The notes under the pieces are model-generated. The model was given only the letters and a program-made list of their open reading frames with translations, was not told the DNA's origin and ran no database searches. From NCBI GenBank assembly GCA_024743275.1, contig JANSWW010000007.1, positions 151,162-215,161 on the forward strand: a stretch of DNA of 64,000 nt, written 5' to 3'. This stretch comes from Alphaproteobacteria bacterium. Lineage in GTDB: Bacteria; Pseudomonadota; Alphaproteobacteria; JANSWW01. How positions within the stretch are numbered: the stretch's first letter is position 1; every line of letters begins with the position of its first letter. Shown here piece by piece: positions 4,094 through 16,674 of the stretch. The position numbers were made by a program, and so were the translations under genes.

Positions 4094-4552
4094 ATGACAG
4101 AGACGACAAAGAAAACCTACCGCAAGGACCAGGCCGCTATCGACAAGCTCGACCGGATGCAGTTCGCCGTCACCCAGAACGACGCCACCGAGCGGCCGTT
4201 CAGCGGCAAATACTGGGATCACAAGGAAGAGGGGCTCTATGTCGACATCGTCAGCGGCGAACCCCTGTTCACCTCACTGGACAAGTTCGATAGCCATTGC
4301 GGTTGGCCCAGTTTCACCAAGCCGGTGCAAACCGGCCATATCGTGGAGAAGCGCGACGTTTCCCATGGTATGATTCGGACCGAGGTGCGCTCGACCCATG
4401 GCGACAGCCATCTGGGCCATGTCTTCGACGACGGCCCGGCCCCGACGGGCCTGCGGTACTGCATCAATTCCGCCTCCCTCCGCTTTATCCCGAAGGATAA
4501 GCTGGAGGAGGAAGGGTATGGAGACTATTGGCACCTGTTCGCGACGCCCTGA
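4094..4552 (+). CDS. msrB: Peptide-methionine (R)-S-oxide reductase MsrB
   Basis: CGWPSF and [10 protein letters not shown] motifs; 152 aa, the typical MsrB length. Confidence 0.9.
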
Positions 4553-5250
4553 GGGCCAGCCCGAGCCTGAACCACCTCACCGATCTGGTCCTGTATCGCG
4601 ACGGGCTCGTCCTCGTTCTCAACAAGCCCGCCGGCATCCCGGTCCATGCGGGTCGTGCCGGCGGCCCCAATCTGGAAGATGGCTTTCCCAGCCTGACCTA
4701 CGGCATTCGCCATGTCCCGGCCCTGGCCCATCGGCTCGACCGGGACACAAGCGGCTGCCTGGCCCTCGGCCGGCATCCCAAGGCGCTCAAGAAGCTCGGT
4801 AAGCTGTTCCGCGAGGGGCGGGCCGAAAAGACCTATTGGGCCCTGGTCCGGGGCGTGCCGGTGCGCGAGAGCGGCGTCATCGACGCGCCCCTGCTCAAGG
4901 TCAACCGACGGACCGGCTGGACCGTGAAGGTCGATCCCGCGGGCAAGGCCGCCCGGACCCGTTGGACGCTGAAGGGCAGCCGTGACGGCATCAGCTTTAT
5001 CGAATGCCATCCGGAAACCGGCCGGACCCATCAGATCCGGGTTCATCTCGCCCATCTCGGACTGCCGATCCTGGGCGACGTCGCCTATGGCGGGAATGCA
5101 TCCGACGGGCCCCTGGCGCTGCACGCCCGGCGGCTGGTCCTCCCGCTTGCCGCCTCCAAGCCGACGGTCGACGTCACGGCCCCGCCGCCGGAGGCTTTTG
5201 CAATTAGAGCAACCACGGTTCTCTCAGGCATAGTATTGCGAGAGTTTTAG
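4528..5250 (+). CDS. RluA-family RNA pseudouridine synthase (no S4 domain); TTG start; the 3' end runs into the low-GC insertion
   Basis: [14 protein letters not shown] catalytic-Asp motif plus [12 protein letters not shown]. The last ~15 codons are AT-rich, unlike the rest of the gene. Confidence 0.75.
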
Positions 5251-7133
5251 GTTTTAAATAAGTCTTCTATATCATCATCAATACTAGAATTATCGCGTAT
5301 TTCTTTTTGGCACCAGTGTCTGACTGAATTCATTTCCTTATGGAAATTGTCGTTTATATCTTTGAACGCGCCCTCACAGTCAACCAGAATTCTCTCGATC
5401 TCGTTGTATAACTCTTCGTCAGATTCCGATAGTTCTTGTATATCTTCGCATCGAATCTTGCAGGCGCTATCCGAAAAACTGATTGTGATAGTTAACGGTT
5501 CATCGGACTGACCACGTTCCTGGTAATGATGGACGCTTTTGGCCGTTTGCTTGAGAAATTCGTGGAATATTTTTCCACTGTATGCTTGATATTGTTTCTT
5601 TCCAGAAATTCGAGATGCTATATGCAGAAGTGAGAATAGTTCATCATCAAATGAAAAAGACGTTATGCCTGTGTCTTTTCCAAATTCTTCAAAACAAATT
5701 GTAAATTGTAACTTGCTAAGTGCGTAATAAGGTTTTTCTGGGTTGCGTGATCTGCTGATAGGTTTGAGGTGCTTCTCGAATTGAGGTTCAACAAATTTTT
5801 TTACGAAAAGGGGGGGATTCATGGAGTAGCAGAATTTTGGAAAATCATCGAAATAGCGGTTTTTGAGCCTCTCCATGAATTTATCAATATGTTGGTTCTG
5901 ATAATAAATAAGTCCATATGCTGCAAAATACTCTTGAAAAGATCGGTGTAAAAATGTAAAATATTTTCCATCGCGCTGTATTAAATTGACGGACTCTGAA
6001 AAATCTCTAAGCGTTTTTTGTGGATCAACGTCTATTTTTGCAATTTTATTAGACTTCTGAATTGTTTCTAGAATATCTACCTCGGTAAATTCAATTCTCT
6101 GTTCCATATATGAAACTAGTGAAAAAACCGAGAAAGCATTCCTAAAAACATGAAAATCGAGTTCATTCACCTTCGTAAATTTTTCTTTCGTGCTGTTGTG
6201 CCAATTATAAAGCGCGATAAACGCATGATCATAAAAAATGTTTAGGCTATCAGATATAGTGCCAGTATCGCTAAATGTTAGGAGCATCATCATTGTGAGA
6301 AGTGGAGTTGACATAAGGCTTTTTTTACTCGAAAAGTCCTTTTTCATTATTTCTTTGAGAAATTCTCTTTTTGTTTTTTCGTGAAATGGTAGCTTTTCGA
6401 TTAAACTAATATTTTGATCTAAATTAAGTTTGCAACACTCGAATCCATTAAAGCCCGACCAAGAGTTGAATCTTTGATTCAGCCTACTTGATACGATGAA
6501 TCGACATTTTTGGAATTCACTTGAAATTTCAATAATTTCGTTTTCAACTCTGTGCTTCTTGTCTTCAACAATCTCGTCAAATCCATCTAGAATAAAAGTG
6601 AATTTTCCTATTCCCATTAGATGGCGAAATGTATCCTCATCTAGTTTACCGCTCTCAGATATTGTGGTGCGTGCTAGTGTAACCAACCCTGATCCTAGTG
6701 TATTTTCTGTTGAGAGATTATTGAGCATCCTCAGTTCAAGGAATATGGGAATTGTGTTTGTTTCTTCTAAAATTACATTCCATAAAAACCTCATGAATAT
6801 CGTTTTTCCTGCCCCACCATTTCCTTGTATTATGACGTTTTTGTTTTTTAGAATCTCATTTATAATTTCAGAGTCTGGGAGAATTGTGTCATTATTTTTG
6901 AAATTCAGGGGTATGTATATTTCATTAAGGCCTACATCGGAGTCTTTCTTTAAAAGTATTTTGATTTTGGTCGTCTTATTCTTGGTTCTTGCAACATAAG
7001 GCTTGAAGTCTTCAAATGCGGCAGTCCATTTTTTTCTAATTGTGGGCTGTAAATGAAGTGTAATTCGATTCCAGAGCTCCTTTACGGTTTCTATGGTTAA
7101 CTCAGCTGTATATTTTTCTGCGGAGAAGCTCAT
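5247..7133 (-). CDS. NACHT-clade STAND NTPase (bacterial NLR-like protein); candidate antiphage defence protein
   Basis: Walker A IIQGNGGAGKT and Walker B FTFILDGFDEI (the hhhhDGhDE NACHT signature), sensor-1 RFIVSSR, and STPLLTMMML (GxP-like NACHT motif). The ~95-aa N-terminal region and ~330-aa C-terminal region have no recognisable domain. An AAGGA Shine-Dalgarno sequence lies 11 nt upstream of the ATG. Confidence 0.8.
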   Translation of the reverse strand: MSFSAEKYTAELTIETVKELWNRITLHLQPTIRKKWTAAFEDFKPYVARTKNKTTKIKILLKKDSDVGLNEIYIPLNFKNNDTILPDSEIINEILKNKNVIIQGNGGAGKTIFMRFLWNVILEETNTIPIFLELRMLNNLSTENTLGSGLVTLARTTISESGKLDEDTFRHLMGIGKFTFILDGFDEIVEDKKHRVENEIIEISSEFQKCRFIVSSRLNQRFNSWSGFNGFECCKLNLDQNISLIEKLPFHEKTKREFLKEIMKKDFSSKKSLMSTPLLTMMMLLTFSDTGTISDSLNIFYDHAFIALYNWHNSTKEKFTKVNELDFHVFRNAFSVFSLVSYMEQRIEFTEVDILETIQKSNKIAKIDVDPQKTLRDFSESVNLIQRDGKYFTFLHRSFQEYFAAYGLIYYQNQHIDKFMERLKNRYFDDFPKFCYSMNPPLFVKKFVEPQFEKHLKPISRSRNPEKPYYALSKLQFTICFEEFGKDTGITSFSFDDELFSLLHIASRISGKKQYQAYSGKIFHEFLKQTAKSVHHYQERGQSDEPLTITISFSDSACKIRCEDIQELSESDEELYNEIERILVDCEGAFKDINDNFHKEMNSVRHWCQKEIRDNSSIDDDIEDLFKT

Positions 7134-7446
7134 TGGGCTGCGATCCTTAGAGTATGAATTCTAAATTTTTTATCAATACGAGCAAATATGACCAGAGATA
7201 CTTCAAGATGCAAGAAATATGTTGGTTTATAGAAAGCCTTGATAGAGAATCTTTCGGTTTGAGGTTGCTGCGGTGAGCATGCTTCCGTCACGTTGTTTTG
7301 CAGACTATCGTGTGGTGTGTCAGTGCGTACTGCAGGGGGTTTCTTGGCTAAAATGGCTATGCCGTAAACGACGTTTGACAGAGTTCATGTAAAGTAAAAT
7401 TTATGTAATAAGTTTTATTGAAGCCCTATTAAGAATTTTATTATTT

Positions 7447-7474
7447 GACAAGCGGTCGCATGCGTCAGCTTGTC
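7447..7474. promoter_or_regulatory. 28-bp imperfect palindrome (gacaagc-ggtcgcatgcgtca-gcttgtc), an operator-like site in the AT-rich leader upstream of the NACHT gene
   Basis: Outer 7-bp arms are perfect reverse complements and the core cgcatgcg is itself palindromic. A TTGACA hexamer overlaps the 5' arm. Confidence 0.4.
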
Positions 7475-7552
7475 CTCATCCATATCGGTTAACGTTCCGT
7501 AAAGCTTGATGGGTGAAGGGGAAAACATCTTGCTAAGACAAGGAGACGACCT

Positions 7553-7648
7553 ATGGCCGATCTTGCTTTCCCGCTTCTTAATATGCTGATCATTGGTTTC
7601 GGTATCGCGTTCTGTGCGAAAGAACTCTACGCGCTGAACAAGCAGTAG
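7553..7648 (+). CDS. 31-aa hydrophobic micro-protein (MADLAFPLLNMLIIGFGIAFCAKELYALNKQ), predicted single transmembrane helix
   Basis: A strong AAGGAG Shine-Dalgarno sequence lies 8 nt upstream of the ATG. Intermediate GC (~47%). Sits at the right edge of the islet, divergent from the NACHT gene. Confidence 0.35.
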   Translation: MADLAFPLLNMLIIGFGIAFCAKELYALNKQ

Positions 7649-7659
7649 GCGGACCATTT

Positions 7660-7743
7660 TCTGCGGGCCGAGGCCGTCGATCCCGCTCGGGGCGCGCTCG
7701 GGGCGCGCTCGGGGCGGGTGTCGAGACGGAACCGGCCCGCAGA
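7660..7743. repeat. Perfect 11-bp inverted repeat (tctgcgggccg / cggcccgcaga) enclosing three tandem 11-bp units (gctcggggcgc, 7685-7717)
   Basis: Read directly from the sequence; the arms extend to ~15 nt if one T indel is allowed. Confidence 0.6.
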
Positions 7744-7850
7744 AATGCTCCAATTATCCCGCGACCCGTCGTTTAGCCCAAAACCCGCCCCCGACTTCGG
7801 CGTATCAATAGCCATCACCGCAATCCCAAATCCTCCCAGGAGATGCGACG

Positions 7851-9068
7851 ATGGCGACCGCCCTGCTCCCCGACAGCGCCGACCTCCATAACGTCAACGA
7901 GCCGGCCGAGCTTCCGGATTTCGACGCCTTTCCGATCCGGCATCGGCTGACCGCCGCCAGGGCTTGTGGTCAGGCGGTCGATCTGGTCTGGGACGACGGG
8001 GCCGAGACCCGATATCACGTCATGACCCTGAAGGAGAACGCGCCGGACATCGTCCATCCGGTAACCCGGGAGCAGGCGACGATGCTGACCGACATCCCGG
8101 CGGACCTCGCGGCGGCGGAGGTTGGCGTCGACGGTGTCGGCGGGCTGTGGGTGCGCTGGTCGACCGGCGGGATCAGCCGGTTCCATCCGGGTTGGCTCCG
8201 CGCCTACGCCCCGGGTGCGCCGGAGGATGTCTTCGCCCTGCCACCGAGGGTGACCTGGGACGCCGCGACGATGGCCGACCTGCCGCGCTTCGACGGCCCG
8301 GCGGCGATCGCCGACGAGACGGTGCGGACCGCCTGGATGGAAGCGCTCTACGTCTACGGCGCCGCCATTCTGGAGGGACTGCCCACGGACGAGGAGGTGA
8401 TCCACCGGGTCCCGAGCCTGATAGGCCCGCTGCGGGAGACCAATTTTGGCAAGACCTTCACGGTCGAATCGAAGCAGGACGCCACATCCAACGCCTATAC
8501 GACCATGGCCCTGCCGGTGCATACGGACCTGTGCACCCGCGAGTACGAGCCCGGCCTGCAATTCCTCCACTGCATCCGCAACGACGCGGACGGCGGCGAA
8601 AACATCCTGGCCGACGGGTTTCGGCTCGCCGAGCGGATCAAGGCCGACGCGCCCGAGGAATACGACGCGCTGACCACCGTGCCGATCACCTTCTACAACA
8701 AGGCGACGGACACGGATTTCCGCTGCACCGTGCCGATGTTCGATCTCGATAAGGACGGCGACCTCAGCGATGTCCGCTGGAGCCCCTGGCTCCGGGCGCC
8801 GGTCCGGGCCTCCTTCGAGGAGACGGACCGGCTCTATCGCGGTCTGCGCCGGGCCTTCGCCCTGGCCGAGGACCCGGCCTTCACGGTGACGACGAAGCTC
8901 AAGGCCGGCGACCTTCTCTGCTTCGATAACCGGCGGGCCCTGCATGGGCGTGTCGGCTACGATCCGACCACCGGCGGCCGCAAGCTCATGGGCTGCTATG
9001 TGGAGCGGGAGGATCTGGTCTCGGCCCTGCGCATCATGCTGCGCCGACGCCGCGCCGCGGAGGTCTGA
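7851..9068 (+). CDS. Fe(II)/2-oxoglutarate dioxygenase of the gamma-butyrobetaine hydroxylase/TauD family with an N-terminal DUF971-like region
   Basis: HTD...(facial triad), CFDNRRALHGR, and ~405 aa, the typical BBOX-like length. AGGAG lies just upstream of the ATG. Confidence 0.8.
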   Translation: MATALLPDSADLHNVNEPAELPDFDAFPIRHRLTAARACGQAVDLVWDDGAETRYHVMTLKENAPDIVHPVTREQATMLTDIPADLAAAEVGVDGVGGLWVRWSTGGISRFHPGWLRAYAPGAPEDVFALPPRVTWDAATMADLPRFDGPAAIADETVRTAWMEALYVYGAAILEGLPTDEEVIHRVPSLIGPLRETNFGKTFTVESKQDATSNAYTTMALPVHTDLCTREYEPGLQFLHCIRNDADGGENILADGFRLAERIKADAPEEYDALTTVPITFYNKATDTDFRCTVPMFDLDKDGDLSDVRWSPWLRAPVRASFEETDRLYRGLRRAFALAEDPAFTVTTKLKAGDLLCFDNRRALHGRVGYDPTTGGRKLMGCYVEREDLVSALRIMLRRRRAAEV

Positions 9069-9116
9069 GCCGTGGCCGCCATTCCCCGGACCGTTCCCCG
9101 GACCGTTCCAGAAACC

Positions 9117-10229
9117 ATGGCTGGTGTCCATCTGACCGGCCAGGGCGGGCTCGATAAGCTGGTCTACCGGGAGGACATCCCGACGCCCAAGCCCGGCCCG
9201 GGCGAGGTCCTGGTCCAGGTGGCGGCCGCCGGGGTCAACAACACCGACATCAACACCCGGATCGGCTGGTACAGCCCGGACGTCAAATCCGGCACCACGG
9301 CGGAGGGCGGTTCCGAGGGCCTGGGCGACTCCGAAAAGGATACCGGCAGCTGGACCGGCCGCCTGGTCTTCCCGCGTATCCAGGGGGCCGATTGCGTCGG
9401 CCGGATCGCCGCCGTCGGCCCCGGGGTCGATCCGGCTCGGATCGGCGAGCGGACGGTGTGCGAGCCCTATATCGTCGATCCCGACGACGAGACCGGCCTG
9501 GAGAGCGCCGGTTTTCTCGGCAGCGAATATGACGGTGCCTTCGCCCAATTCATGGTCCTGCCGGCCCGCAACGCCCACCGGGTGAGCGACGATCTCGACA
9601 TCCCGGACCCGGCCCTGGCGACCTTGCCCTGCTCGGGCGGGACCGCCATGAACATGCTGGTGATGGCCGGCGCCAAGGCCGGCGATCTCGCCCTGGTCAC
9701 CGGGGCGTCCGGTGGGGTCGGGACCTTCCTGGTTCAGATCCTCAAGCATATTGGCGCCGAGGTGGTGGCGGTCGCCAGTCCCTCCAAGTTCGACGCCGTG
9801 AAGGCGGTCGGCGCCGATCATCTGGTCGACCGTACGACCCCGGATCTGGAGGCGGCGGTCCTGGAGGCGACCGGCGGGCGCCGGGTCAGCCTGGTCGCGG
9901 ATGTGGTCGGCGGCGCCCAGTTCCCGGCGATGCTGGCGCTGCTCCGTCAGGGTGGGCGCTATGTGACGGCGGGGGCGATCGCCGGGCCGGAGGTCACCCT
10001 CGACCTGCGCACCCTCTATCTCAAGAGCCTGTCCTTCTTCGGCTCCACGGTCTACCGCCGGGAGACCTTTCCGAAGCTCATGCGGTTTCTGGAGGAGGGC
10101 GGCATCAAGCCCGTGGTCGACAGCACCGCTCCGCTCGCCGAGATCCGCGACGCCCAAACGCGCTTTCTCGCCAAGACCCATGTCGGAAGTCTGGTGCTGA
10201 TCCCGCCGCCGGTCGGCGCGGCGGACTAG
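9117..10229 (+). CDS. Zinc-binding (medium-chain) dehydrogenase/quinone oxidoreductase family protein
   Basis: GPGEVLVQVAAAGVNNTD and the Rossmann motif GASGGVGTFLVQI. The ATG at 9117 is preferred over the GTG at 9072. A 12-bp tandem duplication (ccccggaccgtt x2) lies just upstream. Confidence 0.8.
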   Translation: MAGVHLTGQGGLDKLVYREDIPTPKPGPGEVLVQVAAAGVNNTDINTRIGWYSPDVKSGTTAEGGSEGLGDSEKDTGSWTGRLVFPRIQGADCVGRIAAVGPGVDPARIGERTVCEPYIVDPDDETGLESAGFLGSEYDGAFAQFMVLPARNAHRVSDDLDIPDPALATLPCSGGTAMNMLVMAGAKAGDLALVTGASGGVGTFLVQILKHIGAEVVAVASPSKFDAVKAVGADHLVDRTTPDLEAAVLEATGGRRVSLVADVVGGAQFPAMLALLRQGGRYVTAGAIAGPEVTLDLRTLYLKSLSFFGSTVYRRETFPKLMRFLEEGGIKPVVDSTAPLAEIRDAQTRFLAKTHVGSLVLIPPPVGAAD

Positions 10230-10846
10230 TCGGCGTCGACCGCCCGCATCATCGCTGCGACGGCCAGATCGCCCGGCCGGCCCCGCTGTTCGAGCGCGGC
10301 GGCCGCCCCGGCGCGGTCCGCGGGGGTCTTGTTCTGGGAGAGCTTCCACTTGCCCTGAAGGTCGGTGATCATGATCTCGAACCCGATCAGCGCCTTTCTA
10401 AGGCCGGTGAACAGCTTGTCGCCGAGCTTGTCGTTGGTCCACGGCTTCTTCGGTAGCAGGCGCTCCTCCTCCTGGGCCGACACGTCGTCCAGAAGGGTCA
10501 CGGTCTCGGCGTCGGTCATCCGCCGGGCCGTGCCGTAGGCGTGCACCACCGCATAGTTCCAGGTTGGGACCTGGCCGTGGCTTTCATACCAGTCGGGCGA
10601 GATATAGGCGTGGGCGCCCTCGAACACGAACAGCACCTCCCCCGCTTCCTCCAGAACATGGGCCGCCGGGTTCGCATGGGCCAGATGACAGCGGATGGTT
10701 CGTGTGTCGCGGTCGATCAGCACCGGCAGATGGGTCGCGTCCGGGCGGCCCTCGATCGTCGTCACGAGCACCGCGAACGGGTCGGACTGCATCAGATCGA
10801 ACAGAATATTCTCATCGGTCTCGGTGAACTGGCGTGGGACATACAT
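10226..10846 (-). CDS. FMN-binding negative transcriptional regulator, PaiB family
   Basis: MYVPRQF... N-terminus, PaiB-like overall pattern, ~205 aa. Confidence 0.7.
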   Translation of the reverse strand: MYVPRQFTETDENILFDLMQSDPFAVLVTTIEGRPDATHLPVLIDRDTRTIRCHLAHANPAAHVLEEAGEVLFVFEGAHAYISPDWYESHGQVPTWNYAVVHAYGTARRMTDAETVTLLDDVSAQEEERLLPKKPWTNDKLGDKLFTGLRKALIGFEIMITDLQGKWKLSQNKTPADRAGAAAALEQRGRPGDLAVAAMMRAVDAD

Positions 10847-10952
10847 TGCGAACGACCATCTCAAAAAGCGGTGAAAGAGAAAAATGGGGTGATGCGTTTT
10901 GCCGGATCGCCCCTATCTTCATCGAAGAAGGCAGGTGAGGAAAAGGCTGAGT

Positions 10953-11663
10953 ATGACGGACAGCATCCCGTTTTTCGGCGGTCAGGCGAAGAAGGACCCC
11001 CTCGACCGCGATCCCTTCTCCGGCCGGCTCAAGGAAAAGCTGATCGGCGCCAAGGAGTCCTGGGCGCGGGACGGCCGTCTGCTGACCGGTGACGCGCCGT
11101 CCACCGGCCGCCGCCGATTACCGCCGGGCCAACGCTTGGTCACGGATTGGCCGGAGCTCGATCTCGGCGTGCAGCCCAACTTGCTGCCCAAGGATTGGTC
11201 CCTGGAGGTTTCCGGCCTGATCGACCGGCCGTTCAAATGGACCTACACCCAGCTCAAGAAGCAGCCCCAGGCCGAGGTCGTCTCCGACATCCACTGTGTC
11301 ACCGCCTGGTCGCGCTACGACAACCGCTGGCAGGGGGTGAGCGCCAGACATCTGATGAGCGTCGCCAAGCCCCGCCCGGAGGCCAGGTTCCTCATTCTCA
11401 AAAGCTACGACGGCTATTCGACCGGCTTGCCGCTCGCCCATTTCGGCGACGAGGACGTGCTCTTGGCGACCCATTGGGAGGGGCGGCCCCTGACCCGCGG
11501 GCACGGCGGCCCGGTGCGGCTTGTTGTCCCGAAACTCTATTTTTGGAAGTCCGCCAAGTGGATTCGGTCGATCCGGTTCACCGATCGCGACGTTAAAGGC
11601 TTCTGGGAGGCGCGTGGCTATCACGATCTCGGGGATCCCTGGAAGGAGCAACGTTATGGCTAA
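10953..11663 (+). CDS. Sulfite oxidase-like molybdopterin-binding oxidoreductase (YedY/MsrP-like)
   Basis: Conserved CVTAWS Moco-binding Cys motif and GYHDLGDPWKEQRY C-terminus. Confidence 0.75.
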   Translation: MTDSIPFFGGQAKKDPLDRDPFSGRLKEKLIGAKESWARDGRLLTGDAPSTGRRRLPPGQRLVTDWPELDLGVQPNLLPKDWSLEVSGLIDRPFKWTYTQLKKQPQAEVVSDIHCVTAWSRYDNRWQGVSARHLMSVAKPRPEARFLILKSYDGYSTGLPLAHFGDEDVLLATHWEGRPLTRGHGGPVRLVVPKLYFWKSAKWIRSIRFTDRDVKGFWEARGYHDLGDPWKEQRYG

Positions 11664-12219
11664 ATTGAAGAAGGTGGCGGGCATGCTGGCCGCCGCCACC
11701 CTGATGTCGATGAGCCCGCAACCGGCGACCGCCGCCGGGAAGGCCTTCGACTTCGAATTCACCGCCATCGACGGCGACCCGATGCCGCTGTCCGAGTTCA
11801 AGGGAAAGGCGGTTCTGGTGGTCAATACCGCCTCGCTGTGCGGCTTCACCGGGCAGTATGCCGGGCTGCAGGAGCTTTACCAAAGCCGGGCCGACAAGGG
11901 CCTGGTGGTGATCGGTGTGCCGTCCAACAACTTCGGCAATCAGGAGCCGGGCACGGAAGAGGAGATCGCGGAATTCTGCGAGGCCCGATACCAGGTCACC
12001 TTCCCGATGACGGAGAAGGTCGATGTGGTCGGCGACAACGCCCATCCTTTCTACCGCTGGATCTCCGCCGAACTGGGCGAGCGACGGGCGCCGCGCTGGA
12101 ACTTCTACAAATATCTGATCTCGCCGGAGGGCGCCGTTGTCGGCTCCTGGCCGTCGACCACGAAACCGACCGCCAAGACCATCACGGCCGAGGTCGATAA
12201 GCTTCTGGCCGGACAATGA
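11656..12219 (+). CDS. Glutathione peroxidase with signal peptide
   Basis: NTASLCGFT active-site motif (Cys replaces Sec), FPMTEK, WNFYKYLI. Confidence 0.85.
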   Translation: MAKLKKVAGMLAAATLMSMSPQPATAAGKAFDFEFTAIDGDPMPLSEFKGKAVLVVNTASLCGFTGQYAGLQELYQSRADKGLVVIGVPSNNFGNQEPGTEEEIAEFCEARYQVTFPMTEKVDVVGDNAHPFYRWISAELGERRAPRWNFYKYLISPEGAVVGSWPSTTKPTAKTITAEVDKLLAGQ

Positions 12220-12692
12220 TTGGAGTTGGGAAAGGCGTGGGCGTCGTCGCGCTGCTGGCCATGCTGGGTGCGCCGTCCACCGCCTGGGCCTTCCCCCAGA
12301 ACGAGGACGCCTTGGGTCCGTTCACCGCGATCGAGGCCCTTTTGAAGCAGGAGGAATACGGTCAGGCGCTCGACGTGCTTGGCCAGATGGAAACCTCCCA
12401 TGGGGAGGAGGCGGACTACTGGGTCCTGCGCGCCTATTCCCAGCGCAAGGCCGGCGACATCGAGAGCAGCCGGGCGAGCTATCTGAGGGCGCTTGAGATC
12501 GATCCCGCCCATATCCGCGGCCGCAATTACTTCGGCTATCTCCACCTCACCGTCGGCGATATCGCCGGCGCCGAGGCACAGCTCGCTTTTCTCGAAGCGC
12601 TCTGCCCCTCCGGCTGCGCGGAACGCGACGATCTCGCCAAGGCGATCGAGGACTACAAATTCGGCGACCCCTATGACGGGCTGAAGTACTAG
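12216..12692 (+). CDS. Secreted hypothetical protein with TPR-like helical repeats
   Basis: N-terminal signal peptide ending AWA; Ala/Leu-rich helical repeats; start overlaps the gpx stop codon. Confidence 0.5.
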   Translation: MIGVGKGVGVVALLAMLGAPSTAWAFPQNEDALGPFTAIEALLKQEEYGQALDVLGQMETSHGEEADYWVLRAYSQRKAGDIESSRASYLRALEIDPAHIRGRNYFGYLHLTVGDIAGAEAQLAFLEALCPSGCAERDDLAKAIEDYKFGDPYDGLKY

Positions 12693-13036
12693 CGTCCGGA
12701 CCCTAAGCCCTGGACCCATAATCGCTTGGCCGAGGGCGGTACTTCCCTCGCGTCGGCAACGGCAAGGATCTCGGCGATCGGTCCTCCACGGGGGCGATCG
12801 AGAGCCTCGTTTCCCCGTCCTTGATGGATGTCGCGTGCTCGTCAGCCCGGGCGATTGTGCCGTGTTTGCTTCGCCTCCCGACCCAGACATCGCCCCGTCC
12901 GATACAATCGGCTTGAGATGAGCCTATGCTAGCAATCTTCTGTTGAGCTGGATGAGTGGTATGCTCGCGATCCGAAGCTTGACACCACGCCCCTGCTCTG
13001 TTCGGCAGGCTCTTAAAGTTAATCTATAGGGGCTTT

Positions 13037-13672
13037 TTGATGTTTGATCAGTATTTGGCGGGGATTCTCGTTGCTTTCGGCGTCTTTATCATGGGGATGT
13101 TAAGCCCTGGCCCGAACATCATGTCGATCATCGGAACGTCCATGGCCGTGGGTCGTTCACAGGGCAAGGCCTTGGCCCTGGGGATCGCGAGCGGGTCGTT
13201 CATCTGGGGCACCCTTACGCTTTTCGGTCTGACCGCATTGTTGGCGGCTTATGCCGGCCTGTTGACGATCATCAAAATCGCGGGGGCGAGTTACCTGCTT
13301 TTTCTCGCTTTCAAGGCATTTTCGTCCTCGTTGAAGGGCAAATCGATGGAAGCGCAGAGCGTCAAAGTCGAAGGCGGAACCGCACGTTACTATCGTCGTG
13401 GCCTCTTGATCCAAATGACAAATCCGAAGGCTGCGTTCACTTGGCTGGCAATCTTGTCCATCGCGCTCGATCCGACAGCGCCTTTCTGGGTTGGAGGCGT
13501 TGTCGTGGCCGGAACGGGAGCCATCTCGATTTTCGGCCATTTGGCATATGCGATCGCGTTTTCGACCGCGCCCATGGTTCGTGGTTACCGCAAAGCACAG
13601 CGATTGATCGACGGAATGCTCGGGTCGTTCTTCACGTTTGCCAGCTACAAGATCGCGACCTCAAATCCATAA
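13037..13672 (+). CDS. LysE/RhtB-family amino-acid exporter
   Basis: LSPGPN motif near the N-terminus; ~210 aa with six hydrophobic segments. Confidence 0.8.
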   Translation: MMFDQYLAGILVAFGVFIMGMLSPGPNIMSIIGTSMAVGRSQGKALALGIASGSFIWGTLTLFGLTALLAAYAGLLTIIKIAGASYLLFLAFKAFSSSLKGKSMEAQSVKVEGGTARYYRRGLLIQMTNPKAAFTWLAILSIALDPTAPFWVGGVVVAGTGAISIFGHLAYAIAFSTAPMVRGYRKAQRLIDGMLGSFFTFASYKIATSNP

Positions 13673-13800
13673 TAGGCAGCGTGACCCTGGGCTCGGCGTG
13701 AAGACCGGCGAGAACACGTCAAGCCCGTTGCCGGTACTTCGGCGATATTGTCGGGCCGAGAGTCGAAGTCCGGCCTCGCCGCTAAACCAGACGTCACCAT

Positions 13801-15501
13801 TTACGAGTGCGCGACCGATGGGCCGGTCGCCGGGACGGTTTTCCCGTCGGGAATGGCGACGATCCCCAGCGGCTCAACCCGTCCGCGCACCTCCGTTTCG
13901 TGCGTCGCGAACCCGCCGAGATCGATGCCGGCCCAGTTGCCGGCGGTTTCGGAGACGATCAGTTGAACCTGATAGTCCTTGGTCAGACTCTCGAGCCGGC
14001 TGGCGATGTTGACCGTGTCCCCGATCGCCGTCATGCCGGTGGCATCCCCATAGCCCATTTCCCCGACGATGCAGGGGCCTGCGTGAACGCCGATACCGAT
14101 CCGGATCGGTTCCGGCAGATCGTCGGCCAGCGACGCGTTCAGCCGCTCCAGATTCTCCGCCATGCGCCTGGCCGCGTCGATCGCCTGCCGGCTGCCGGTC
14201 GCCGGACCCTCCTCGATGCCGAATAGGGCCATCACCCCGTCGCCGATGAATTTGTCGAGCTTCCCGCCTGCCTGGCTCACCGCCGCTCCCATCTCGGCGA
14301 AATAGCGGTTCAGCAGGTACACCGTGTCATAGGGGAGTTTCGCTTCGGCAAGTTTCGTAAAGCTGCGGATATCGGCGAACAGGACCGCGATCTCCCTTTC
14401 CTCTCCTGCGGTGCTGGTCCGCTGAATGCCGGGGGCGCCGCGGACGGAGGGCGGGATCAGGGGCGTGATCTGCAGGTCGGTCTCGGGACGGAGCTGACAG
14501 GCGAGCCTGACCCGGGGCGGGGCGGAGACCCGCCGCAGCACCTTCCGTTCCGCCTCGCTCGCCGCCGGCAGCGTGTCGGCGCCCCTGTCGACCCGGATCC
14601 GGCAGGTCGAGCAGCGGCCCCGGCCGCCGCACACGCTGGCATGGGGAATGCCGCCGATCCGGCTCGCCTCCAGAACCGTGGTGCCCTTGGCGATCTGAAC
14701 CTTCTGGCCTTGCGGATAGGTGATCCGTATCCGGCCGGCCCGCCGGTCGAGACTGTGGAGGGTGATCCGCGCCAACACCAGGAACACCAGCAGGAGGGCG
14801 TAGGCCGCCCAGATCCGGTCCCGCGCGTCGGAAATCTTCTCCGCCATGCCCGGGAGGGTGGCCTTGGACGAGGTGAGCGCTTCGCTCAGCCATGCCCGGT
14901 CCTGCGCCATCTGCTGGACGAACAGACCGGCGTCGACCCAGCCGATCATGGCCACGGTCGGCACGATCACCGCCGGGGTGAAGAGATAGGGCCGCCAGCG
15001 CCGGTATCCCGGCTTGGACGACAGCCAGAAGTCGATGCCGATGCAGCCGTGAACCCAGGCCGCCAGCACCGCCGCCGCCTGAACGAAGCCGGTATAGGGC
15101 ACGAAAACCCAGTGGGCGAGCAGCACGAAGCGGTAGTGGGGCTCGAGCGCGAAGAACTCCTGGGCGAGGCGGGTCGCGGTGACATGCTCGATCAACAGGA
15201 AGGGCAGAACGGCCCCCAGCGCCAACTGGGCGACCTCCTGACGGGTCATCGACTTGAGCCTTTCGCGCAGCAGAAAGGCCCTGGCGGCGATCAGAAGATG
15301 GACGGCAAGCGCCCCGTATAGGGCGATGGTGCCCGGCCGCGACTGCCACACCGCCATGAAGATCTCCCGCCCCGCTTCCAGGGCGCCGATCGAGATGATC
15401 CCGATCATATGGTTCACGAAATGGCTGGTCACATAGACGAAGAGCGTGAGCCCGCTCCACAGCCGCGCCCGGTCCACCCAGGCGGTCGCGGCCTCCGCCA
15501 A
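13801..15501 (-). CDS. Membrane-anchored class III adenylate/guanylate cyclase with an internal 2Fe-2S ferredoxin-type domain
   Basis: About six N-terminal TM helices, then CGGRGRCSTCR...C (plant-type ferredoxin Cys pattern), then the CYCc motifs VLFADIRSFT and KFIGDGVMALFG. Confidence 0.8.
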   Translation of the reverse strand: MAEAATAWVDRARLWSGLTLFVYVTSHFVNHMIGIISIGALEAGREIFMAVWQSRPGTIALYGALAVHLLIAARAFLLRERLKSMTRQEVAQLALGAVLPFLLIEHVTATRLAQEFFALEPHYRFVLLAHWVFVPYTGFVQAAAVLAAWVHGCIGIDFWLSSKPGYRRWRPYLFTPAVIVPTVAMIGWVDAGLFVQQMAQDRAWLSEALTSSKATLPGMAEKISDARDRIWAAYALLLVFLVLARITLHSLDRRAGRIRITYPQGQKVQIAKGTTVLEASRIGGIPHASVCGGRGRCSTCRIRVDRGADTLPAASEAERKVLRRVSAPPRVRLACQLRPETDLQITPLIPPSVRGAPGIQRTSTAGEEREIAVLFADIRSFTKLAEAKLPYDTVYLLNRYFAEMGAAVSQAGGKLDKFIGDGVMALFGIEEGPATGSRQAIDAARRMAENLERLNASLADDLPEPIRIGIGVHAGPCIVGEMGYGDATGMTAIGDTVNIASRLESLTKDYQVQLIVSETAGNWAGIDLGGFATHETEVRGRVEPLGIVAIPDGKTVPATGPSVAHS

Positions 15502-15507
15502 CGCCGG

Positions 15508-16674
15508 TCAGTTCCCGTCGAGCGCGAGCCGGTTCTGGCCGGCCCCGTCGCCGCTATCGGGTTTCGGCACCAGCTCCGGCTCTTCCGTCTCGCCCAACTG
15601 GACCTCCTCGATCCGTTGGGCCCGTTTGGTGACCTTCTCGGTCGAAATGCGGATCTGCCGGATGTCCTCGTCCGCCTGGCCGAAATGGCGTTGCAGTTTC
15701 CCGACCCGATCGTCGAGCCGGTCGACATCCTTTAGAAGGGTCAGGACCTCCTTCTGGATCACGCCGGCCTGTTCGCGCATCCGCGCATCCTTCAGCACCG
15801 CGCGCACGGTGTTGAGCGTCGCCATCAGGGTCGTCGGGCTGACGATCCAGACCTTTTCGGCGAAGGACTTCTCCACCGTATCGGCGAAGCCCGCGTGGAG
15901 TTCGGCGTAGATCGCCTCCGACGGGATGAACATCAGCGCCGATTCCGCCGTCTCGCCCGGAATGATGTAACGCTCCTTGATGTCCTTCACATGGCGCAGG
16001 ACGTCGGTGCGGAAGGCCCGCTCCGCATGGACCCGGTCGGTCTCGTCCTTCGCGGCGTGGAGCCGGCGGTAGCTTTCCAGGGGGAATTTCGAATCGACCG
16101 CGATGGCGCCCGGCGGGTTCGGCAGGGTGAGAAGGCAGTCCGCCATCCGGCCGTTCCCGAGTTTCGCCTGAAACTGATAGGCGTTGGGCGGCAGGATCGA
16201 CTGGACGAGGTTCTCGAGCTGGACCTCCCCGAAAGCCCCACGGGCCTGTTTGTTGTTGAGGATGTCCTGCAGGCCGACGACCTGGGTCGACAATTCGGTG
16301 ATGTTCTTCTGCGCCGAATCGATCACCGCCAGACGCTCTTTCAGCGCGTTGAGGTTCTTGCCGGTGTTCTCCGCCTGCTGGCCGAGGCTGTCGCCGACCC
16401 GTTTCGACATGTCGGCGAGCCGCTGCTCGATCGCCTGGGTCAGCGCCCTTTCCTGGGCGCGCAGGTTTTCCGCCATTTGCTGCTGGGCGGCGGACTGGCT
16501 CTCCGCCACCTGGGCGAGGCGGCCGTTCAGGGCGGACTGGTTCTGGGAGAGCTGGGCGACGACGTTCGAGATCGCCTGGGTATCGCCGCGGGCGCGGCTC
16601 ATCATGAGGGCGGCGGTGCCGAGGCTGATGGCCAGGACAGCCCCGACGATGATCAGAATGAGGGTGGGATCCAT
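15508..16674 (-). CDS. rmuC: DNA recombination protein RmuC
   Basis: N-terminal TM segment, long coiled-coil region and the conserved C-terminal FIPSEAIYAE motif; start set at MDPTLIL. Confidence 0.8.
   Translation of the reverse strand: MDPTLILIIVGAVLAISLGTAALMMSRARGDTQAISNVVAQLSQNQSALNGRLAQVAESQSAAQQQMAENLRAQERALTQAIEQRLADMSKRVGDSLGQQAENTGKNLNALKERLAVIDSAQKNITELSTQVVGLQDILNNKQARGAFGEVQLENLVQSILPPNAYQFQAKLGNGRMADCLLTLPNPPGAIAVDSKFPLESYRRLHAAKDETDRVHAERAFRTDVLRHVKDIKERYIIPGETAESALMFIPSEAIYAELHAGFADTVEKSFAEKVWIVSPTTLMATLNTVRAVLKDARMREQAGVIQKEVLTLLKDVDRLDDRVGKLQRHFGQADEDIRQIRISTEKVTKRAQRIEEVQLGETEEPELVPKPDSGDGAGQNRLALDGN

Follow-up and report, generated by a model that had tools for sequence, protein, structure and literature searches.

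The best described counterparts of the gene reported here are short bacterial NACHT proteins (bNACHTs). bNACHT01 from Klebsiella pneumoniae acts as a single gene and protects E. coli against the phages T4, T5 and T6 in a Walker A-dependent manner, and its short C-terminal domain, SNaCT, diversifies rapidly (Kibby et al., bioRxiv 10.1101/2022.07.19.500537). The same study defined NACHT among the STAND NTPases by the signature D[GAS]hDE, and described clade 14 as the only bNACHT clade without fused effector domains, with proteins of about 600 aa that occur in all phyla including Alphaproteobacteria. In bNACHT11 (WP_114260439.1, clade 14), SNaCT binds several unrelated phage proteins by beta-augmentation, the ATP-bound protein forms a heptamer stabilised by the extreme C-terminal tail, which docks into the neighbouring protomer, and killing proceeds by plasmolysis via an N-terminal extension of ~45 residues in which the MDPIT motif is essential (bioRxiv 10.1101/2024.12.17.629029). 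Here we analyse a NACHT gene in a 64,000-nt stretch of an alphaproteobacterial assembly (GCA_024743275.1, contig JANSWW010000007.1, positions 151,162 to 215,161; henceforth "the window"), where it lies in a short AT-rich tract at the 3' end of an rluA-family pseudouridine synthase gene. The account that we favour, and that we regard as likely to be correct as a whole, is that of a foreign 2,164-bp insertion into rluA, which carries a short bNACHT with the layout of the clade-14 type and, by analogy, a defence function.

The insertion in rluA and its empty site

Measured in 300-nt windows, the GC content is 0.62-0.70 up to about position 5250, falls to 0.32-0.42 over ~5250-7650, and then returns to 0.59-0.73; the abrupt drop across 5199-7552 is real and far beyond chance. 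The sole long open reading frame (ORF) of the tract is the NACHT gene on the minus strand, whose GC content at third codon positions (GC3) is 0.34, compared with 0.83 for rluA and 0.88 for the TauD gene. A protein search with RluA identified three close relatives, and their contigs were retrieved. In the metagenome contig L084 (RluA 90% identical), the 3' end of rluA is followed by a 175-bp AT-rich spacer, a 31-aa ORF, a GC-rich hairpin and the start of the TauD gene, with no NACHT gene between rluA and TauD. According to blastn, positions 145-691 of L084 correspond to 4652-5198 of the window (92.3% identity) and positions 713-1253 to 7363-7903 (92.6%). The foreign segment is 5199-7362, with junctions (5198/5199 and 7362/7363) placed within ~2 nt, and where it stands the empty site has 21 nt instead (L084 692-712, at the 3' end of rluA). 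The features of the locus are as follows:

4528..5250, plus strand: chimeric rluA-family pseudouridine synthase gene, 240 aa, native to about 5198
5199..7362: foreign insert, 2,164 bp, GC 0.363 (blastn against L084)
5247..7133, minus strand: intact gene for a NACHT STAND NTPase of 628 aa, of the short bNACHT01/11-like type
7134..7362, minus strand: 5' flank brought with the gene, 229 nt, GC 0.42
7363..7378, plus strand: orphaned native 3' end of rluA (VNDV and stop), collinear with L084 713-728
7363..7552, plus strand: native AT-rich leader/promoter region of the small ORF, kept in L084 and partly in L082
7553..7648, plus strand: native hydrophobic ORF of 31 aa, called in L001, L084 and L082

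The rluA gene itself records the event. Its product belongs to PseudoU_synth_2 (PF00849, E-value 1.3e-30, residues 28-176), and RluA homologues align with it only to about residue 221-225. Positions 5199-5250, i.e. the last 16-17 codons and the stop, are encoded by the inserted DNA, so that the window RluA carries a tail different from that of the native protein, which terminates in PPPEAFSASVARVVNDV and a stop codon. The lost end (C GTA AAC GAC GTT TGA, codons at 7364-7378) persists as an orphan on the far side of the insert, in line with the intact end of rluA in L084. A second relative, L082 (RluA 78% identical), shows the order MFS, msrB, rluA, 30-aa ORF, AraC, aldolase, TauD and ADH, and this outgroup locus also lacks the NACHT gene. 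Given the orphaned remnant and the state of the outgroup, a gain in the lineage of the window is the sole reasonable polarity, and the insertion into this lineage, with its boundaries, is directly visible in the alignments. A first-pass annotation of the window had described an inserted low-GC islet at 5200-7560 that had apparently replaced the native 3' end of rluA, and had proposed a comparison with related rluA loci. That comparison upholds both the insertion and the replacement, since both relatives run from rluA to the small ORF without a NACHT gene. The GC drop stands as described, while the right boundary moves from 7560 to 7362. The low-GC tract is composite: 5199-7362 alone is foreign (GC 0.363, versus 0.648 for the remainder of the window), and 7363-7552 (GC 0.39) is a native AT-rich leader, conserved in L084 (92.6% identity) and partly in L082.

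The same comparison bears on the idea that the gene is ancestral at this site and was lost from the relatives, or that chimeric assembly or contamination produced the low-GC tract. The gene is present in one genome only, and the two assemblies that contain it are 100% identical: the Logan contig L001 matches window positions 4397-15795 without a difference, and it is not an independent confirmation, as both may derive from the same source reads. We find this idea hardly credible, however, as the end of rluA is continuous in the relatives and split in the window, with 16 nt orphaned past the insert, and the gene is missing from the outgroup L082 as well. A GC3 of 0.34 is incompatible with long residence in a genome of GC3 ~0.85, and a false join would not resume at the same locus 21 nt further on. 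Other scans were negative: a scan of GTDB species representatives with RluA gave a best match of 58%, without synteny with TauD and without an empty site, and scans of metagenomes with TauD and with a 32-nt leader pattern found nothing.

The native sequence to the right of the insert has features of its own. Between rluA and TauD, the window, L084 and L082 all have the 31-aa hydrophobic ORF (MADLAFPLLNMLIIGFGIAFCAKELYALNKQ; ribosome-binding site AAGGAG). No family in Pfam, NCBIfam or PHROGs matches it, and it shows what originally stood to the right of rluA. Its leader contains a palindrome, GACAAGCGGTCGCA/TGCGTCAGCTTGTC, at 7447-7474, and two blocks, CCGCATGCGTCA and CGGGTGAAGGGGAA, that are kept in all three loci. 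Just past the small ORF, positions 7658-7745 form a long GC-rich hairpin around three exact tandem copies of CGCTCGGGGCG (-40 kcal/mol as DNA, z -5.3); it has no T-run and is found, with variation, in L084. Positions 1-144 of L084 are unlike the window: its rluA lacks the first ~40 codons and adjoins an unrelated 31-aa ORF on the minus strand, which may be due to a rearrangement, or to the short metagenome scaffold being chimeric at this end. The genes that neighbour the insert are those for MFS, msrB, rluA, TauD, ADH, an FMN-binding protein, a molybdopterin oxidoreductase, GSH peroxidase and LysE. Milder GC dips (0.53-0.58) occur at 10650-11100 and 12750-13650, the second of which spans the LysE-family gene (gene calls of L001). 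The core genes dnaA, dnaN, gyrB and yidC are present in the window (among the 25 top Pfam families listed), and the islet is located within the chromosomal region around the replication origin.

The NACHT protein, its family and its relationship to bNACHT01 and bNACHT11

Besides its one intact gene, the insert comprises 229 nt on the upstream side of that gene and 48 nt on the downstream side. The ATG is preceded, at a distance of 10 nt, by the ribosome-binding site AAGGA, and a promoter and terminator scan around the gene gave results at chance level. The rluA and NACHT genes are convergent and their stop codons overlap. A 53-aa ORF started by GTG (7130-7291, minus strand), with a stop codon that runs into the NACHT start (ATGA), is without homologues or family matches and is probably due to chance.

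The first-pass annotation had classified the gene product as a STAND NTPase of the NACHT clade and had suggested a profile search. Our search identified the Pfam NACHT family (PF05729) with 30.7 bits against a gathering cut-off of 26.7 bits (residues 100-224), with no Pfam domain outside NACHT in the 628-aa protein and only sub-threshold P-loop matches in NCBIfam. The Walker B motif, D183-G-F-D186-E187, agrees with the D[GAS]hDE signature; D183, D186 and E187 are invariant in a 51-sequence alignment of the family, as are G107 and K110, and R217 and the motif HRSFQEYF (H396) are likewise invariant and retained here. The AlphaFold2 (AF2) model (pLDDT 86.6, pTM 0.79) contains the nucleotide-binding domain (NBD), helical domain (HD) and winged-helix domain (WHD) and, in Foldseek searches, matches NLRC4 (4kxf), NOD2 (5irn), NLRP3 and NAIP5 with E-values of 4e-11 to 1e-8; the family profile matches the NLRP3 NACHT domain at 1e-7. 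The gene product is a NACHT protein, as the first-pass annotation had it. The segments of the gene and of the model are:

6969..7133, minus strand: N-terminal extension, residues 1-55, two modelled helices (AF2 model)
6801..6824, minus strand: Walker A, G-N-G-G-A-G-K-T, residues 104-111, with K110 (alignment)
6573..6590, minus strand: Walker B/NACHT signature, L-D-G-F-D-E, residues 182-187 (alignment)
5250..5765, minus strand: variable C-terminal domain, residues ~457-628, alpha/beta fold with long terminal helix and conserved tail
Model residues 5-55: two N-terminal helices
Model residues 56-86: small beta unit
Model residues 99-235: NBD
Model residues 238-311: helical domain
Model residues 327-410: winged helix
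Model residues 413-456: helices
Model residues 470-563: alpha/beta domain
Model residues 570-627: long terminal helix

Among the candidates scored, 509 homologues were found at E <= 1e-3, the best of them (self excluded) 32-33% identical; most are ~630 aa long and come from Rhizobiales, Rhodobacterales and metagenome contigs, and the close ones are all precomputed as PF05729. A profile of 51 members matched 3,586 clusters (50% identity) at E <= 1e-30 and 11,525 at E <= 1e-10 among 1.84 billion representatives, hence the family is very large.

For comparison with bNACHT01 we used a Klebsiella NACHT gene found by tblastn of plasmids, with WP_015632534.1 as its neighbour; the first 84 residues of its product equal those printed for bNACHT01 (WP_015632533.1) in Table S2 of Kibby et al. 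BLASTP aligned the window protein with this bNACHT01-locus protein over residues 1-405 (26% identity, E-value 5e-28), and hhalign of the family profile gave a probability of 99.8% (E-value 4.5e-30, columns 43-456 versus 46-466), a range that takes in the whole annotated NACHT module of bNACHT01 (65-445) and the pre-NACHT region. These alignments establish homology to bNACHT01 at the sequence level. Both are single genes for ~610-630 aa, collinear from the pre-NACHT region through NACHT and the winged helix, with Walker A in the same place (K115 in bNACHT01, K110 in the window protein), and in each the C-terminal domain is short and variable rather than built of repeats, and no enzymatic effector can be recognised. 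They differ in that identity is down to 26%, in that the window gene is part of an alphaproteobacterial chromosome, and not of an enterobacterial plasmid, and its protein is known from sequence, and in that its C-terminal domain cannot be aligned to SNaCT; this domain is hypervariable in both families.

With bNACHT11 the protein shares the succession of a short N-terminal extension, NACHT, a C-terminal domain of ~170 aa with a beta-sheet, and a conserved extreme tail, which reads SLDEIL in the family and IEDLF in the window protein and has its counterpart in the docking tail of bNACHT11. Instead of MDPIT the family has a looser motif a few residues in, [IV]-D-P-[NS]-x-[IV] (D in 26 of the 51 sequences, P in 14, N in 26), and the window protein lacks even that, reading F-S-A-E-K-Y. 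Such a divergent N-terminus could, though with low probability, signal a killing mechanism unlike that of bNACHT11. With the animal NLRs (NLRC4, NOD2, NLRP3 and NAIP5) the common element is the NBD-HD-WHD fold; in contrast to them, the window protein has no leucine-rich repeats and no CARD, PYD or BIR effector domains, and identity is 11-17%.

The ~170-220 residues after the WHD form an alpha/beta domain and a helix, with neither a repeat superstructure nor an enzymatic effector domain, as in the short bNACHTs. Clade 14 includes alphaproteobacterial NACHT-only proteins of similar layout (bioRxiv 10.1101/2022.07.19.500537); four accessions of the family were not found in the accessible part of Table S1 of that work. 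From layout and homology, the protein is probably related to, and would work like, the short bNACHTs of clade 14 (of the bNACHT01/02/11/12/23 type). The N-terminal extension is, by analogy, a putative effector segment, and the C-terminal domain, in the same position as SNaCT, a putative sensor.

Genomic contexts of the family and the route of entry

Relatives of the gene are found in mobile or defence-related surroundings. P0003 adjoins Lamassu-like genes and a SLFN/AlbA_2 gene, P0009 (Sinorhizobium) adjoins IS66 and a SLFN/AlbA_2 gene, and P0012 (Agrobacterium vaccinii) lies within a prophage; relatives are encoded on 138 IMG/VR contigs, and the window protein itself matches phrog_18297 (E-value 5e-71). 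In four of four contexts (L085-L088) the homologous gene has a GC content of 0.40-0.44, versus 0.54-0.60 in the flanks. One of these, P0006 on the Kordiimonas-like contig L087 (5872-7956), provides a second and independent case of a low-GC islet with a single NACHT gene. In L170 and L172 (~6024-6044) the stop codons of two convergent genes, Kelch and GFA, overlap, and no NACHT gene is present; the L087 insert, of ~2.07-2.09 kb, sits exactly at this Kelch/GFA stop overlap, where both neighbours received new C-terminal tails, and the islet contains no mobility gene.

The first-pass annotation had found no integrase, transposase, tRNA or target-site duplication, and gene, tRNA and repeat searches agree with it. 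There is no integrase, transposase or other mobility gene among the insert and its neighbours, no tRNA in the whole window and no Rfam family at gathering score. No direct repeat or target duplication flanks the insert, where 21 nt of host DNA were deleted instead, and the direct and inverted repeat search detected no terminal inverted repeats. The insert ends fold no better than shuffled sequence (z -1.3 to +1.7) and form no end hairpin. The lack of an integrase, a tRNA and attachment-site (att) direct repeats at the borders does not fit a classical genomic island or integrative element. An insertion sequence (IS), transposon or integron cassette is not supported either, there being no terminal inverted repeat, target-site duplication, subterminal hairpin or attC-like palindrome. 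As the join bears no mark of site-specific recombination or transposition, the simplest reading would be that a short foreign fragment was taken in by illegitimate recombination.

The prophages and IS-flanked islands that bear relatives of the gene also lend themselves to another history, in which a larger mobile element, for instance a prophage or a defence island, integrated at the 3' end of rluA and then shrank by deletions to the present islet with its selected NACHT gene. The tight boundaries (48 nt downstream and 229 nt upstream of the gene) and the 21 nt of missing host DNA would suit such trimming, as would the equally tight L087 islet with the altered tails of both its neighbours. Neither in the insert nor beside it, however, is there a trace of att sites, an integrase, phage genes or IS ends, and at least two events would be required where one suffices; we therefore take trimming to be an unlikely, though not a far-fetched, course of events. 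The function of the gene would be the same, and only its path of arrival would differ.

Two independent lineages (the window versus L084, and L087 versus L170/L172), each with a clean empty site and no mobility signature, hold an AT-rich insert of ~2.1 kb with nothing but a NACHT gene in the stop-codon region of housekeeping genes. On this ground one could speculate that some mechanism not yet recognised carries the short NACHT genes of the family, as "naked" single-gene units, to the 3' ends of (convergent) genes, a proposal to which we give little credence. No common flank motif, end sequence or structure, or shared downstream hairpin was found across 76 family loci, and the downstream hairpins that occur in 18 of the 76 resemble ordinary terminators. 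As no end sequence or structure is shared in these loci, the recurrence at gene 3' ends is most simply explained by survivorship of such insertions.

Defence islets and hotspots are sites where accessory defence genes lie between core genes. The window locus resembles them in having a low-GC gene of defence type between housekeeping genes and an empty site in a related genome; it differs from them in that a single gene cuts into coding sequence, without an integrase or att site.

Possible defence function and significance

Homology to bNACHT01 (26% identity) and the presence of relatives in prophages and defence islands suggest an antiphage role. For the trigger, the effector and the entry route we infer the following course. 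AT-rich foreign DNA entered the last codons of rluA in a GC-rich, Rhodospirillales-like metagenome-assembled genome, with the loss of 21 nt and the gain of a new RluA tail of ~16 residues, and would have been joined by illegitimate recombination. The variable C-terminal domain may then bind phage proteins, by analogy with bNACHT11; ATP-dependent oligomerisation of the NACHT module would cluster the short N-terminal extensions, and these, once clustered, would kill the infected cell, which amounts to abortive infection.

Several observations weigh against this account. A search across 5.8 billion clusters brought up no homologue closer than 33% identity. The C-terminal domain has no solid fold match and no detectable sequence similarity to SNaCT, the hhalign alignment ending at columns 456/466. 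The empty-site contig L084 measures just 1,253 bp, and the window has no match to its first 144 nt. The MDPIT-like motif that is loosely conserved at the N-terminus of the family is not kept in the window protein, and expression of the gene is uncertain, because antisense transcription of rluA enters it and no terminator was found. The last two points, together with the lack of a PADLOC match, could also mean that the gene, though it encodes a NACHT NTPase, does not work in phage defence here and is silent, decaying or engaged in some other conflict or signalling role. This we hold to be rather improbable: the ORF is intact over 628 codons, all invariant residues of the family are kept and the model is confident, while the unameliorated GC content suggests recent arrival and not long decay. 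The PADLOC negative for the window protein carries no weight, as the same library also misses the bNACHT01-locus protein.

Apart from its right boundary, the first-pass annotation is supported in observation and interpretation alike by these results. The locus represents a clean but ordinary gain of a probable antiphage gene, and it leaves knowledge of NACHT defence proteins unchanged. As a compact 2.2-kb fragment it is directly clonable for phage-defence tests. The most abundant class of bacterial NLR-like proteins gains a highly divergent member, with at most 33% identity to any known sequence, and the locus provides a well-resolved natural case, with junctions placed within ~2 nt and the empty site in hand, of a defence-type gene that arrived alone in a chromosome and rewrote the 3' end of a host gene, where nothing points to a dedicated mobility mechanism.

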